64,000 nucleotides of DNA. Source: Candidatus Saccharimonadota bacterium (GTDB taxonomy: Bacteria; Patescibacteriota; Saccharimonadia; Saccharimonadales; Saccharimonadaceae). Made by a program: the position numbers and the translations under genes. The DNA lies in the NCBI GenBank assembly GCA_027492255.1, contig JAPUFB010000003.1:13889-77888 (forward strand), in the 5' to 3' direction. Each line of letters begins with the position of its first letter. The first letter of the stretch is position 1. Positions 29,002 through 48,037 of this stretch are shown here, piece by piece. The notes below the pieces were generated by a model. That model did not search any database. It saw only the letters and a list, made by a program, of their open reading frames with translations, and was not told where the DNA came from.

Positions 29002-29175
29002 GACAATATTATCCTCCAATCTAATCTCTTTAGCTACCAAGTATATGTAGCTCACGTCCGAAAAGCCTCACGTGCGGTCTGAGAGGTATCTCGGAGTGTC
29101 TAAGCGCGCGTATCTAAGGACGCTTTTTGCTGTAAAACGGTAAGAAAAATAGCCATATACGATGGAATACTTTCT

Positions 29176-29198
29176 TGGTGCGGGTACAGGGACTCTAA
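29176..29198 (-). repeat. displaced copy of the 3' terminal 23 nt of tRNA-Gly (att-like direct repeat)
   Basis: tggtgcgggtacagggactctaa is identical to 33356-33378. Confidence 0.8.
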
Positions 29199-29225
29199 AC
29201 CCCGAACGCCGAAGCGTTCGGGCAA

Positions 29226-29290
29226 TCACACCTGGACTATTGATTTCTTTGACGAGGTCCAGGGTTAGAGAATTACAATACATACCAAAC
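29226..29290. repeat. 65-nt repeat (copy A) containing a 20-nt sense copy of tRNA-Gly positions ~40-59
   Basis: tcacacctggactattgatttctttGACGAGGTCCAGGGTTAGAGaattacaatacataccaaa, compared with 33261-33324. Flanked by hairpins at 29203-29224 and 29296-29316. Confidence 0.75.
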
Positions 29291-29522
29291 GTAAAACCCC
29301 AACGACGAGGTTGGGGCATTACATTTGGTGCTCAACGAGCAGAAAGTTGTACACCCATTTAGCCTTGATAGCTTTGCTGTACAGAGCCTGGAAGTACAAC
29401 GGTGGCGTGATATTCTTGCTGTTCCGTATGCCAACTATAAGAGTATGTTAGTGCCTCGCTAGACTTACACACCACGCCATAGTTATGCTTGATAATAAAA
29501 ATATAAAACCTACAATAGCCTT

Positions 29523-32433: not shown

Positions 32434-32500
32434 AATAAGCCTATTATATACTGTTTTATATGATAGACACCCGCAATCGCTGGTTGAACGAGGACGGCTT

Positions 32501-32585
32501 GGGTTTGTATTAGGGTTTGTATTAGGGTTAGACCCTAAACAGATTTGTATCAGGGTTTGTATCAGGGTTAGACCCTAAACAGATT
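32501..32585 (+). repeat. two tandem REP-like units: 12-nt direct repeats GGGTTTGTAT(T/C)A followed by hairpin (T)TAGGGT-tag-ACCCTAA(A)CAGATT
   Basis: Unit 1 is 32501-32545 and unit 2 is 32546-32585, immediately 5' of the Y1 transposase gene. Confidence 0.75.
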
Positions 32586-32617
32586 GGTTAGTTCGGATTT
32601 TGTGATATTCTAATAAC

Positions 32618-33208
32618 ATGCCATCTCGTAATACAGTTCGTCAGTACGATGCTCCAGCATATTATCATGTGTATAATCGCGGTGCGGGCGGAAGCTATAT
32701 TTTTAGAGATGCTCAGGATAAATATAAGTTCCTATCACTCGTACAACGCTATTTGAGTCACGACTCGCAATATGAAAAATATCCTACTTTCGATATCGAG
32801 CTTATTGCCTACTGTGTCATGGGAAACCATTTTCATTTGCTACTATTCCAGGAGCATGACCTTGAAGCAATCACGAAGCTCATGAGGTCGGTCTCGACTT
32901 CTTACTCAATGTATTACAACCTCAAGTACAGGTCTCATGGCCACGTGTTTCAAAGCGTGTTTAAAGCCGCTAGGATAACTAATGAATCATACCTTGCACA
33001 TATTACACGCTATATACACTTAAACCCCGAAACATACCTGACATACAAATGGTCAAGTTTACGCTACTACATGGGCGAGCAGCCGCCGGACTGGGTAAAT
33101 CCAGCAAGATTACTTGATATGACTTCCATACAATACAAGAAATTCCTAGAGGATTATGAGGATCGAAAGAAGCTCTTAAAAGAGGTTAAGGATCAGCTGG
33201 CACTATAG
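32618..33208 (+). CDS. IS200/IS605-family Y1 (HUH) transposase, RAYT-like
   Basis: 196 aa. VMGNHFHLLLFQ (HUH motif), RYIHLNPE (catalytic Tyr helix). TGaTATTCT lies 6 nt before the ATG. Hairpin GGGTC...GACCC (33214-33236) follows the stop. Confidence 0.75.
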   Translation: MPSRNTVRQYDAPAYYHVYNRGAGGSYIFRDAQDKYKFLSLVQRYLSHDSQYEKYPTFDIELIAYCVMGNHFHLLLFQEHDLEAITKLMRSVSTSYSMYYNLKYRSHGHVFQSVFKAARITNESYLAHITRYIHLNPETYLTYKWSSLRYYMGEQPPDWVNPARLLDMTSIQYKKFLEDYEDRKKLLKEVKDQLAL

Positions 33209-33260
33209 CCATGGGTCTAGGTAGCTTGACCCAGAAACCGACGCGTTCGCGTTCGGAGAG

Positions 33261-33324
33261 TCACATTTGGACTATTGTTTTCGTTGACGAGGTCCAGGGT
33301 TAGAGAATCAAATACATACCAAAG
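33261..33324. repeat. 65-nt repeat (copy B); its 20-nt box is a perfect inverted repeat of part of the adjacent tRNA-Gly
   Basis: 33286-33305 (gacgaggtccagggttagag) is the exact reverse complement of 33373-33392 inside the tRNA gene. Confidence 0.8.
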
Positions 33325-33355
33325 AAAAAACCGACCGAATGGTCGATTCTTTCTT

Positions 33356-33432
33356 TGGTGCGGGTACAGGGACTCTAACCCTGGACCTCGTCCTTGGCAA
33401 GGACGCGCTCTAAACAACTGAGCTACACCCGC
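33356..33432 (-). tRNA. tRNA-Gly (anticodon GCC) with non-canonical D-loop/T-loop
   Basis: Acceptor GCGGGTG/TACCCGC, anticodon stem CGTCC/GGACG, loop TTGCCAA, T-arm CAGGG-TTAGAGT-CCCTG. CCA is encoded; 77 nt. D-loop AGTTGTTTA (G18 U19) and T-loop A56 replace G19/C56. Confidence 0.8.
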
Positions 33433-33505
33433 ATGATGGTGTAAAAGTATAACCGGAAGGTACAATGTGTGCATCTATAGTTGCGTCCTTGGCCTGGCAA
33501 GGATC

Positions 33506-33594
33506 GGTCACCTTCGGCGACCCCCGAACTTCGCTATTGAAAACAAGTTTTCATCGGAAGATTCGTTTCCGAACTGCCACTGGCAGTTCTCACC
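33506..33594 (-). repeat. copy X2 of an unclassified ~85-90-nt hairpin-rich element (possible structured RNA or miniature mobile element)
   Basis: Minus sense: GGTGAGAACTGCCAGTGGCAGTTCGGAAACGAATCTTCCGATGAAAACTTGTTTTCAATAGCGAAGTTCGGGGGTCGCCGAAGGTGACC. Homologous to 47891-47977. Confidence 0.6.
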
Positions 33595-33617
33595 CTAAAC
33601 AACTGAGCTACACCCGC
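33595..33617 (-). repeat. duplicate of the first 23 nt of tRNA-Gly
   Basis: ctaaacaactgagctacacccgc is identical to 33410-33432. Confidence 0.8.
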
Positions 33618-34235: not shown

Positions 34236-34260
34236 TGGTGGCTCCTCCCAGACTTGAACT
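34236..34260 (-). repeat. displaced copy of the 3' terminal 25 nt of tRNA-Phe
   Basis: tggtggctcctcccagacttgaact is identical to 34370-34394. Followed by its own terminator hairpin at 34201-34233. Confidence 0.8.
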
Positions 34261-34369
34261 AGAGGGACAGAGCCCTCAGCAAAAACCATCGCTCTTCAAG
34301 GCCACGCCTGAAGAGCCTTGTGAATAAGTACCAAAGAAAAAAGACCAGCTCTTACTGATCTTCATTCTT

Positions 34370-34445
34370 TGGTGGCTCCTCCCAGACTTGAACTGGGGAC
34401 ACAAGGCTCTTCAGGCCTCTGCTCTACCAACTGAGCTAAAGAGCC
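34370..34445 (-). tRNA. tRNA-Phe (anticodon GAA)
   Basis: Acceptor GGCTCTT/AGGAGCC, D-loop AGTTGGTA, anticodon loop CTGAAGA, T-loop TTCAAGT. CCA is encoded; 76 nt. TGaTATAAT (complement of 34469-34477) lies 24 nt upstream. Confidence 0.9.
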
Positions 34446-47367: not shown

Positions 47368-47444
47368 TGGTGGGGAATACAGGGCTTGAACCTGTGACCT
47401 CACGAATGTGAATCGTGCGCTCTAGCCAACTGAGCTAATTCCCC
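47368..47444 (-). tRNA. tRNA-Val (anticodon CAC)
   Basis: Acceptor GGGGAAT/ATTCCCC, anticodon stem CACGA/TCGTG, loop TTCACAT, T-loop TTCAAGC. CCA is encoded; 77 nt. Confidence 0.9.
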
Positions 47445-47533
47445 GTGGCTGATATAGATAGAGGGTGCGATATGCGGTATTAGCTTAAAGCGAAGCTGGC
47501 TAGAGCGTGCGCGCTTTATTCGCTGAAGGCTCT

Positions 47534-47552
47534 CCAACTGAGCTAATTCCCC
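47534..47552 (-). repeat. duplicate of the first 19 nt of tRNA-Val(CAC)
   Basis: ccaactgagctaattcccc is identical to 47426-47444. TATATT box lies just upstream in minus sense. Confidence 0.75.
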
Positions 47553-47727: not shown

Positions 47728-47804
47728 GGGCGCTTAGCTCAGTTGGCTAGAGCATCTCGTTTACACCGAGAGGGTCGGGGGTTCGAGCCCCTCAGCGCCC
47801 ACCA
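47728..47804 (+). tRNA. tRNA-Val (anticodon UAC)
   Basis: Acceptor GGGCGCT/AGCGCCC, anticodon stem TCTCG/CGAGA, loop TTTACAC, T-loop TTCGAGC. CCA is encoded; 77 nt. Confidence 0.9.
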
Positions 47805-47811
47805 AAATAAG

Positions 47812-47839
47812 AAGGTCACGAAAGTGGCCTTTTTGTTTT
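47812..47839 (+). terminator. intrinsic terminator after tRNA-Val(UAC)
   Basis: AAGGTCAC-gaaa-GTGGCCTT followed by TTTTGTTTT. Confidence 0.7.
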
Positions 47840-47892
47840 GGTGAATAATTGTGGACTCAAACAGCCGACCCTCTCTGGCGGAGGGGTCGGGG

Positions 47893-47977
47893 TGAGAATT
47901 GCCCGTGGCAATTCGCAAGGAAACCTTCTCTTGAAAACTTGTTTTCAAAGATGAAGTTTCGGGCCAGCCGAAGGTAG
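47893..47977 (+). repeat. copy X1 of the unclassified hairpin-rich element, inserted in a partial tRNA-Val(UAC) 3' half
   Basis: TGAGAATTGCCCGTGGCAATTCGCAAGGAAACCTTCTCTTGAAAACTTGTTTTCAAAGATGAAGTTTCGGGCCAGCCGAAGGTAG. Preceded by GAGGGGTCGGGG and followed by GTCGAGCCCCTCAGCGCCCACCA. Confidence 0.6.
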
Positions 47978-47978
47978 G

Positions 47979-48000
47979 TCGAGCCCCTCAGCGCCCACCA
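47979..48000 (+). repeat. displaced copy of the 3' terminal 22 nt of tRNA-Val(UAC)
   Basis: tcgagcccctcagcgcccacca is identical to 47783-47804. Confidence 0.8.
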
Positions 48001-48037
48001 AAGTAAAAACCGGTCACGACGACCGGTTTTTACTTTT
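48001..48037. terminator. bidirectional terminator (perfect 15-bp stem) shared by the tRNA fragment and the convergent oxidase gene
   Basis: AAGTAAAAACCGGTC-acgac-GACCGGTTTTTACTT. Confidence 0.7.

Follow-up and report, generated by a model that had tools for sequence, protein, structure and literature searches.

The element X is an uncatalogued family of small structured elements, about 90 nt long (88–91 nt), found across the Saccharibacteria. Its members occupy essential tRNA genes without breaking them: almost every X lies in a superfluous, incomplete duplicate of a tRNA gene, next to the intact one. On balance, we lean towards reading X as a non-autonomous, strand-specific mobile element that resides in redundant partial tRNA copies. 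These copies would probably stem from insertion-linked template switching, with an IS200-like Y1 transposase as a plausible driver.

Two copies of X in one 64-kb window

Two copies, X1 and X2, lie in the window, by which we mean the whole 64-kb stretch of DNA analysed here (Table 1). An earlier note on this DNA had described them as homologous hairpin-rich elements, each embedded in a tRNA fragment and belonging to no RNA family that could be named. The homology is confirmed and lies far beyond chance. A covariance model finds both elements where the note had placed them, and their shared blocks align over about 88 nt without large gaps, with a mean column identity of 76% across the compared 146-nt stretches, flanks included. 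The identical 16-nt core that the note had pointed out, GAAAACTTGTTTTCAA, occurs exactly twice in the 64 kb. The reverse complements of X1 and X2 score far lower with the same covariance model, at 20 bits and 12.9 bits respectively. There is no third copy in the 64-kb window, where the next best model match reaches 10.7 bits (E 0.63). X2 is a member of a subfamily with CGGAAACGAAT...TTCGGGGG in the outer part of stem P2, and at the outer P2 pairs 35-79 and 36-78 both sides differ between X2 and X1.

The lack of an assignable RNA family also holds. At the Rfam gathering cut-off only tRNAs pass in the window (n = 8) and X matches no Rfam 15 family; with E values up to 10, nothing credible appears over X1 or X2.

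Table 1. Positions of the features around X1 and X2 in the 64-kb window
Feature	Position	Strand	Evidence or remark
Y1 (HUH) transposase gene, IS200-like / RAYT-like	32618-33208	+	300 nt from X2
Intact tRNA-Gly(gcc)	33356-33432	-	begins 50 nt past the fold-back junction
Short direct anticodon-arm piece, then its inverted complement (GATCCTTGCC A GGCCAAGGACGC)	33483-33505	-	
X2, full element	33505-33595	-	covariance model match, 101.4 bits
Copy of tRNA-Gly(gcc) positions 1-23, 5' side of X2	33595-33617	-	
Intact tRNA-Val(tac), 3' part duplicated around X1	47728-47804	+	ARAGORN; Rfam tRNA 66.8 bits
Terminator-like hairpin after tRNA-Val, extended to palindrome CACCAAAATAAGAAGGTCAC / GTGGCCTTTTTGTTTTGGTG; pivot of the inverted copy	47800-47843	+	
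Degenerate inverted copy of tRNA-Val positions ~41-77	47839-47875	+	repeat search, local alignment
Direct copy of variable loop and T-stem 5' strand (GAGGGGTCGGGG), abuts X1 5' end	47881-47892	+	
X1, full element	47890-47980	+	covariance model match, 106.1 bits
X1 P1	47896-47903 with 47907-47914	+	structure counted on 97 copies
X1 P2	47920-47937 with 47942-47960; CUUG loop 47938-47941	+	
X1 P3	47963-47969 with 47973-47979	+	
Direct copy of T-loop 3' part, T-stem 3' strand, acceptor 3' strand and CCA	47979-48000	+	
Second terminator-like hairpin, closing the X1 module	48000-48036	+	inverted repeat, 16 nt, 100% complementary

Both copies are indeed embedded in tRNA fragments. The sequence that abuts and overlaps the 3' end of X1 is identical to tRNA-Val(tac) at 22 of 22 positions and belongs to a direct repeat of 31 nt (47783-47813 / 47979-48009, 94%) that contains the last 22 nt of the tRNA. 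The palindrome through the tRNA-Val terminator pairs 47800-47819 with 47824-47843 as an inverted repeat of 20 nt (85% complementary). The inverted copy of tRNA-Val, for which this palindrome is the pivot, begins TGGTG, spans the X insertion point without X, and is recovered as the inverted repeat 47768-47790 / 47853-47875 (83%). At X2, the first 23 nt of tRNA-Gly recur as a direct repeat (33410-33432 / 33595-33617, 23 nt, 100%), and the direct and inverted anticodon-arm pieces form a fold-back junction 3' of the element.

The 571-aa ORF adjoining X1 was considered as a recombinase and rejected; by eye it reads as FAD-linked oxidase-like. A BipA-like protein is also encoded as a neighbour of X; a search for strain variants by way of this protein recovered no polymorphism.

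An uncatalogued family across Saccharibacteria

We scanned the pattern GGTGAGAA-N(25-55)-GAAAACTTGTTTTC over 185,579 species genomes and obtained 101 loci, nearly all of them in MAGs of Candidatus Saccharibacteria or Saccharimonadales, with several genomes supplying two contigs each. The pattern matches in loci L060 and L072 are due to chance. Gathering the loci by an exact pattern means that neither the 5' motif nor the five apical pairs could vary among them. A covariance model built from an alignment of 97 distinct X copies (alignment A2) detected about 125 copies in 100 Saccharibacteria loci (genome fragments), of which about 25 had escaped the exact pattern. Two such copies, in L006 and L082, carry compensating changes in the apical stem. 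Homologues beyond the two initial copies, which the earlier note had proposed to seek in this and other CPR/Patescibacteria genomes, are numerous and come nearly all from Saccharibacteria, so that the note's placement of the organism among the CPR/Patescibacteria was right.

Searches of viral, phage and plasmid sequences and of existing catalogues returned nothing that belongs to X. A scan of viral contigs with a 17-mer core yielded 27 loci, none with the X pattern, and these are chance matches; the X1 module had no BLAST match among phage or plasmid records. Rfam, scanned over 18 loci, reported rRNA, tRNAs and two group I introns, the latter away from X. In the literature, we found no description of the X element or of its locus architecture.

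Covariation defines three hairpins on the tRNA strand

The three-hairpin fold of X is strongly supported by covariation. Counting the pairs of this structure in the 97 copies of alignment A2 revealed standard pairs in 96.6% of 3103 cells, compared with 82.1% in shuffles. Both sides have changed in 18 of 32 pairs, and the cells changed on both sides number 415 versus 128 in shuffles. The covariation score measures 0.398, against 0.138 in shuffles and only 0.03-0.05 when partners were slid.

The double change from T:A to C:G that had been noted in stem 1 proved to be one of many: across the family, pair 10-26 reads CG in 45 copies, AU in 29, UA in 11 and GC in 9. The 3' hairpin with changed outer pairs is likewise real, as the P3 pairs 83-97, 84-96 and 88-92 are each switched in more than 40 copies. 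P2 is a long 17-pair stem closing on GAAGTTTC, with a conserved palindrome at its tip. The local second hairpin of the earlier description (AAGG-aaa-CCTT), by contrast, shows no covariation, with 84.8% of cells paired versus 84.6% in shuffles and a score of 0.128 versus 0.142; the stretch forms the outer 5' strand of P2 instead.

Several pairs are fixed as G-U. Pair 86-94 is GU in 84 of the 97 copies and 82-98 in 45, while 39-75 is UG in 37 copies and 7-29 is GU in 20. These conserved G-U pairs assign the fold to the given strand, which is the strand in the tRNA's direction.

X lies in partial tRNA copies beside the intact gene

Wherever an intact matching tRNA gene is present beside X, it lies on the same strand as X. 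Two arrangements occur. Class B comprises the majority of loci, including X1, and its intact tRNA ends 62-87 nt upstream of X. The tRNA is followed by a terminator-like hairpin, a degenerate inverted copy of its 3' part (positions ~42-76, beginning TGG) and a few bases. Next, the variable loop and the 5' strand of the T-stem recur as a direct copy and X follows; behind X lie a fragment that runs from the T-loop 3' part through the 3' strands of the T-stem and acceptor stem to CCA, and a second terminator. Class A, to which X2 belongs, begins with a tRNA 5' fragment (from +1 or up to 22 nt upstream), followed by X, about 9 tRNA bases, an inverted copy of about 12 bases, and ~20-30 nt that include a -10-like box. 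The intact tRNA comes last, its start about 130 nt beyond that of X.

The usual insertion point is the T-loop, between T54 and T55, as X is preceded there by GG(T) and followed by (T/C)C-R-A. Sites in the D arm (X2, L019, L056, L091) and in the anticodon stem/loop (L048, L089, L090, L070) also occur, and there, too, X follows GG in the tRNA. At least 35 tRNA/site (tRNA/class) combinations are occupied. One target is not a tRNA: about 400 nt upstream of dprA, arrays of X sit in the loop of the hairpin AAGAGCCTACAGAG-GGGGTGGGCACC-GCTGTAGGCTC, with an intact hairpin after the last copy. Tandem X-X pairs exist and are direct, not inverted. In L007, L020, L069 and L078, X is found antisense as a simple insertion between TGGTAGCGG and GGCCAGGAC, and the tRNA-Met fragment that X has entered in L020 already bears another element in its acceptor strand.

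A direct-inverted-direct architecture

Systematic alignment detected the inverted tRNA piece in nearly all class B loci (43 of 45; mean score 24.2, compared with 13.7 in shuffled flanks) and in most class A loci (18 of 23). The piece covers roughly positions 42-65 and hence spans the insertion point without X. The direct 3' fragments of 21-24 nt are almost always identical to the tRNA, whereas the flanking duplicated sequence has diverged; such identity amid diverged neighbours could mean functional selection rather than youth.

Of 132 tRNAs counted in the loci, 58 (44%) have their last 14 nt repeated downstream. Most of these copies break off in the T-loop (47 of 58) and some a few bases nearer the 3' end (8 of 58). 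Among the 47 T-loop breaks, 32 have the X 5' motif just upstream and 15 have other sequence, and those of the 15 that were read hold other small elements. An uninterrupted run across the T-loop occurs in only 1 or 2 of the 58 copies. The rarity of insert-free fragments argues that fragment formation and T-loop filling are linked, or that only filled fragments persist. Within the window, tRNA-Phe displays the architecture without X (fragment 34236-34302, inverted piece 34306-34335, ~20-nt filler), and tRNA-Val(cac) (47495-47552) likewise has only a ~20-nt filler and no X. As duplication without X and X without new duplication both exist, the coupling of the two is unproven.

Some duplications run 15-70 nt past CCA, pass through the terminator, or take in the -10 box upstream of +1, and those that include a terminator or -10 box speak for DNA as the template that was copied. 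In inverted triplications of the ODIRA type (PMC11790251), replication that switches template between short inverted repeats yields a direct-inverted-direct order. The order seen here is the same, and its junctions, at the terminator hairpin and the arms of the tRNA, lie where this process would place them. A perfect palindrome formed in this way would be unstable, which would account for an inverted copy that is degenerate in every case next to a direct fragment that is almost always identical to the tRNA.

Site occupancy varies between genomes

The T-loop slot of the 3' fragments is not reserved for X; it also holds unrelated or partly related small structured sequences. These are element W (L021), element Z (L014, L094), element V (L054, L012, L014, L004, L020), element Y (L012) and element Q, which sits in the tRNA-Gly module of the window. 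Several of these slot elements have the 5' module of X, GG(Y)GAGAA-hairpin-TTCG. Occupancy of a given tRNA also differs: tRNA-Val(tac) carries X in the window and in L017, L021, L082, L095 and L098, has another element in L014, and is empty, with no module, in L036.

X copies at the same site are hardly more alike (identity 0.798) than copies at different sites (0.778), and 3 of 50 nearest neighbours share the tRNA site. Pairs within one genome range from 0.72 (X1 versus X2) to 0.98 identity. That the similarity of X copies does not follow their site points to recurrent insertion or turnover, rather than to a fixed orthologous gene.

A Y1 transposase tied to T-arm-like DNA

The product of the Y1 gene near X2 matches Pfam PF01797 (Y1_Tnp) with 31.6 bits (cut-off 23) and the NCBIfam REP-associated tyrosine transposase (REP_Tyr_transpos) with 40 bits, below the cut-off of 80. 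It has 3350 homologues, the closest of which are 56-100% identical and all ~196-200 aa long. Where the source names an organism, they come from Saccharibacteria or Saccharimonadales, and some are named RayT by JGI. The neighbourhoods of the gene differ even among relatives at 79-86% identity, so that the unit itself must move. The Y1 relatives provided no orthologous empty site for X2, and close relatives are not syntenic.

The Y1 gene has flanking hairpins of its own (AGGGTTAGACCCTAAACAGAT and variants), which are inverted on both sides in L132-L134. In several genomes these hairpins (AGGGTTAGACCCT) look like a T arm, and behind the gene lies a module with a tRNA 3' fragment; the T arm to which they can be likened is that of tRNA-Gly, CAGGGTTAGAGTCCCTG. 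The 3' flank of the gene consists of a class-B-type tRNA-Gly module with element Q in the window and in L135, and of a tRNA-3'-like piece, a terminator and TGGTG in L130-L132 and L139. In the window, two copies of the ~165-nt tRNA-Gly module, at 29.17-29.34 kb and 33.2-33.36 kb, flank a 3.9-kb segment that bears the Y1 gene. The Y1 enzyme is itself tied to tRNA T-arm-like DNA.

The flanking hairpins show no similarity to P1 or P3 of X. The covariance model finds no X beside Y1 in L129-L134, with one distant match 5.5 kb away in L132, and the Y1 gene is present in only one other of the 100 X loci. Y1 as the trans-acting enzyme for X is a candidate on grounds of plausibility, the link being unproven.

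No reverse transcriptase or integrase gene recurs next to the X loci. An apparent cluster of serine recombinases near X (15 loci) was rejected as an artefact: it arose from spurious ORFs running through X in the antisense direction. Real recombinase genes occur at only three loci (L044, L011 and L001), where large serine recombinases abut tRNA genes.

How X may spread

The GC skew is negative across the whole window and shows no sign change. Since one replichore carries both X1 (+) and X2 (-), insertion specific to the lagging strand is rejected, and the orientation of X follows the tRNA gene and not the replication strand. This would fit a target defined by sense-strand sequence or structure, either single-stranded DNA exposed in heavy transcription or, equally well, RNA.

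The earlier note had left three options for the element. That of a structured element stands, with strand specificity added, and so does the link to a tRNA-like target, which now extends to at least 35 combinations in about 100 genomes; a ribozyme finds no support, as no ribozyme family in Rfam matches X at E values up to 10.

In the reading that we favour, the three hairpins would be the part of X that selection keeps. X would enter exposed sense-strand loops of tRNA genes after GG(T), most often between T54 and T55, and less frequently the D arm, the anticodon loop and, in one case, the loop of a hairpin that is not a tRNA. An X that landed in an essential tRNA gene with no second copy would kill the cell, which would be why nearly every surviving X lies in a partial tandem duplicate. 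In such a duplicate the tRNA piece is complete on one side of X; on the other it stops about 10 nt away at the fold-back junction, which the intact tRNA gene adjoins. Template switching during replication, at the hairpins of the tRNA and at its terminator, would generate the duplicate as a miniature inverted triplication, at or near the time of insertion. We favour a single-stranded DNA intermediate, which may be handled in trans by the IS200-like Y1 (HUH) transposase of the lineage. The data show the family, its fold and strand, its target sites, the make-up of the loci and their changing occupancy, and from these we infer movement, its coupling to duplication, the intermediate and the enzyme.

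A broader version of this hypothesis is tentative, and we put less trust in it. X and at least four other families (V, W, Y and Z) may form a class that colonises essential tRNA genes by self-healing insertion, in which entry into a loop would be coupled to a hairpin-guided template switch that rebuilds the intact tRNA. Such a process may be driven by Y1 with its T-arm-like end hairpins.

We consider it unlikely that X is instead a small RNA module of the host or a component of some tRNA-linked RNA. As such it would share the transcript of the tRNA or use the old tRNA promoter, giving a chimera with a tRNA end. Selection would then keep the tRNA piece identical, for instance for processing, stability, mimicry or pairing with the tRNA. 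Structure is conserved rather than sequence, the G-U pairs suit an RNA on the tRNA strand, and the orientation tracks the tRNA and not the replichore. The modules could also be transcribed as such a model would have it, since those of class B close with their own terminator-like hairpin and those of class A keep an upstream -10-like box. The 3' fragments, almost always identical to the tRNA over 21-24 nt despite their diverged flanks, and the presence of a downstream fragment at 44% of the tRNAs in the loci would likewise be in line with a function in the host. A host gene is, however, hard to reconcile with occupied tRNAs that vary by genome, some having none, with unrelated elements filling the same slot, and with a similarity among X copies that is independent of site. 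Nor does it account for X antisense in a tRNA-Met fragment, for the tandem X-X pairs and the arrays at a non-tRNA hairpin, or for the decay of the inverted copy.

Movement through RNA in a SINE-like manner, whereby a chimeric tRNA-X transcript is reverse-transcribed and template jumps make the inverted and direct pieces, we regard as improbable. X is strand-specific in the transcribed sense and sits in highly transcribed genes, and the inverted and direct segments look like twin priming or template jumping. In most class B loci, moreover, the mature CCA or a position a few bases from it marks the end of the duplicated segment, and in many class A loci the segment starts at +1. Duplications that continue beyond CCA, run through the terminator or include the -10 box nevertheless fit DNA copying. 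X has no A-tail and no variable 5' truncation, and no reverse transcriptase gene was seen in the window or near X.

We attach very little probability to the modules being decayed att sites of integrase elements in tRNA genes, with X as an arm left after loss of the interior. A direct repeat of the tRNA 3' part from the T-loop is a hallmark of T-loop-targeting integrases, and such a repeat is found at both ends in the window (47783-47813 / 47979-48009) and in ~45 class B loci. The three large serine recombinase genes that abut tRNA genes (L044, L011, L001) and the 3.9-kb window segment between the ~165-nt tRNA-Gly module repeats could also be read in this way. What speaks against it is that one and the same ~90-nt X occupies no fewer than 35 different tRNA sites, each time with flanks that match the site, that the distance from tRNA to X is constant at 62-87 nt with no remnant genes between, and that the ~175-200 bp between the repeats contain no ORF and no integrase gene. 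Class A loci, in addition, duplicate the tRNA 5' part, and X also resides in D arms, anticodon arms and a non-tRNA hairpin.

The idea that tRNA genes carry X as an intron or other intervening sequence, to be removed from the transcript, has next to no likelihood, for all the structure of X, its position in tRNA loops and its sense orientation. When X was removed in silico with many boundary choices, ARAGORN predicted a tRNA across the junction for only 2 of 98 copies, and both of these are doubtful. The same tRNA is always present intact next to X, and the group I model RF00028 has no match at X, although it does match elsewhere in L007 and L069.

Implications

Transposon insertion into tRNA loci is lethal, and these loci are normally closed to transposons. 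If our favoured reading of X as a mobile element in redundant tRNA copies is true, the tiny genomes of Saccharibacteria host small structured elements in nearly half their tRNA loci, and the constant direct-inverted-direct architecture would point to a specific route of target rebuilding. This bears on the persistence of mobile DNA in reduced genomes, on the substrates of IS200-like Y1 enzymes, and on the origin of tRNA gene fragments and the confusion that they bring to annotation and assembly. Should self-healing insertion also hold, it would be a new way for transposons to use essential conserved genes as safe, universal landing sites. X is, in any case, a new structured motif with ample covariation and fit for curation, and its modules offer concrete targets for transcript mapping in cultured TM7 strains.

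Comparison with known systems

In its general kind, X resembles MITEs, REPINs and IS200/IS605-derived hairpin elements, and would thus belong with the small mobile elements that are defined by hairpins; its habitat and its target-restoring architecture are unusual.

REP and REPIN sequences are thought to be mobilised in trans by a single-copy RAYT (Y1 HUH) transposase. X is reminiscent of them as a short non-coding hairpin-defined element, of the sort that occurs in tens of copies per genome with strand-specific structure, and a Y1 transposase gene is present in this window. Whereas a REP is a palindrome of 20-40 nt or an inverted doublet of it, X forms one unit of 88-91 nt with three distinct hairpins. 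RAYT genes are flanked by their own repeat in inverted orientation, but the Y1 gene here is flanked by other hairpins. X also lies inside tRNA fragments and is accompanied by a partial duplication of its target, while REPs are found in ordinary spaces after genes.

IS200/IS605 elements and their non-autonomous derivatives (PATEs) share with X the hairpins near both ends, orientation-specific insertion next to a short motif and the lack of a classical short target-site duplication. Their substrate is single-stranded DNA, a route that for X is a proposal. In contrast to these elements, no full-length IS with X ends was found, the orientation of X follows the tRNA gene and not the replichore, and the target of X is a structured loop of an RNA gene.

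Integrative elements whose tyrosine integrases recognise tRNA genes likewise break the gene in the T-loop or anticodon loop, leave a displaced partial tRNA copy at the far end and regenerate an intact tRNA gene. The X 'island', however, measures only ~175-200 bp and lacks an integrase, and its junction includes an inverted tRNA piece. A single X family serves at least 35 tRNA sites, and tRNA 5' parts are duplicated too.

Rickettsia palindromic elements and comparable small elements are also structured non-coding elements tolerated in genes, including RNA genes, of reduced genomes. Those elements stay in functional genes, whereas X resides in a non-functional partial copy next to the restored gene.

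Finally, the X loci and the inverted triplications of ODIRA (PMC11790251) have in common the direct-inverted-direct order and junctions at hairpins that were already there, in this case the terminator and the arms of the tRNA. ODIRA is known mainly from yeast and involves kilobases; at X, where no replication origin is apparent, the scale is tens of bases and the third copy carries the inserted element.

Placements of X and of other small inserts

X, a structured element of about 90 nt, is not the only occupant of its position in partial tRNA gene copies: at least four more insert families (W, Z, V and Y), likewise small and structured, are found there, and several of them carry the 5' module of X, GG(Y)GAGAA-hairpin-TTCG. 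At L012, two fragments follow in succession, each with a different insert. In four loci, X lies antisense in a tRNA-Met fragment, as a simple insertion into the 3' strand of the acceptor stem and without new duplication; at L020, the fragment so entered already contained element V. In the tandem X-X pairs, the second unit is X-like and divergent, and begins where hairpin P3 of the first X is expected. A single tRNA-Val(tac) gene carries X both upstream, next to a 5' fragment (class A), and downstream, in a 3' fragment (class B).

X also forms arrays, of two to four copies each, in the loop of a conserved non-tRNA hairpin, AAGAGCCTACAGAG GGGGTGGGCACC GCTGTAGGCTC, and each array is followed by an intact copy of that hairpin. 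A possible pseudoknot partner, ACACCCTTCAACCCACC, lies downstream of it, about 400 nt upstream of dprA. Rfam gives no match for this hairpin region, which may represent an unknown RNA or leader.

Features at tRNA loci and related sites (plain coordinates, window; L numbers, loci from other genome fragments, mostly of Saccharibacteria)
Feature	Position	Strand or orientation	Remark
W, Z, V and Y inserts	L021, L014, L094, L012, L054, L004, L061		T-loop slot of 3' tRNA fragments
Antisense X in tRNA-Met fragment	L020 3585-3675; L007 7351-7442; L069 4898-4988; L078 4660-4750	antisense	
Tandem X-X pairs	L004 7101-7265; L029 28-191; L065 7728-7883		
X on both sides of tRNA-Val(tac)	L017 3629-3719 and 3909-3999		
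X arrays in hairpin loop	L093 7218-7576; L099 2095-2377; L088 4686-4912; L009 297-388		
tRNA-Val(cac) partial duplicate, class A-type, without X	47495-47552	-	upstream of tRNA-Val(cac) 47368-47444
tRNA-Phe partial duplicate	34236-34335	-	downstream of tRNA-Phe 34370-34445
Hairpin units ahead of Y1 gene	32480-32590		two tandem copies of GTTTGTATYAGGGTTAGACCCTAAACAGATT
IS200-like Y1 transposase gene	32618-33208	+	preceded by tandem hairpin units
Direct repeats, ~165 nt	29170-29345 and 33200-33365		flank 3.9-kb segment
Large serine recombinase genes	L044 1778-3460; L011 4429-6018; L001 100-1476		
Group I introns	L069 4421-4677; L007 5901-6104		Rfam RF00028, 75 and 68 bits

Partial tRNA duplicates without X

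The tRNA-Phe locus of the window shows the same direct-inverted-direct layout as the X loci, but X is absent. The terminator is followed by 17 nt of the anticodon arm, copied perfectly in inverted orientation (34306-34322 versus 34400-34416), then by a direct copy of tRNA positions ~27-76 holding a 22-nt filler, gatggtttttgctgagggctct, and its own terminator. At tRNA-Val(cac), a 5' fragment (positions 1 to ~24, 20 nt identical) is succeeded by a short filler, after which positions ~15-31 are repeated in inverted orientation, about 50 nt ahead of the intact gene.

Transposase and recombinase genes and group I introns

Both ~165-nt repeats contain a 3' fragment of tRNA-Gly, the 50-nt hairpin element Q, a T-arm copy in inverted orientation, a terminator and TGGTG; their mean column identity is 77% in an alignment with L135 as third row. 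Besides the Y1 gene, four further ORFs lie between them. Because the short-read assembly contig L129 spans this intervening segment, its assembly probably broke at the repeats. Within the window, the hairpin unit is confined to the site ahead of the Y1 gene, and its stem-loop is similar to the T arm of the tRNA-Gly nearby.

The group I intron of L007 adjoins a tRNA match. The serine recombinase genes of L044 and L011 each cross a tRNA gene in antisense at their 3' ends, which suggests that these genes belong to separate integrase-type elements at tRNA loci.
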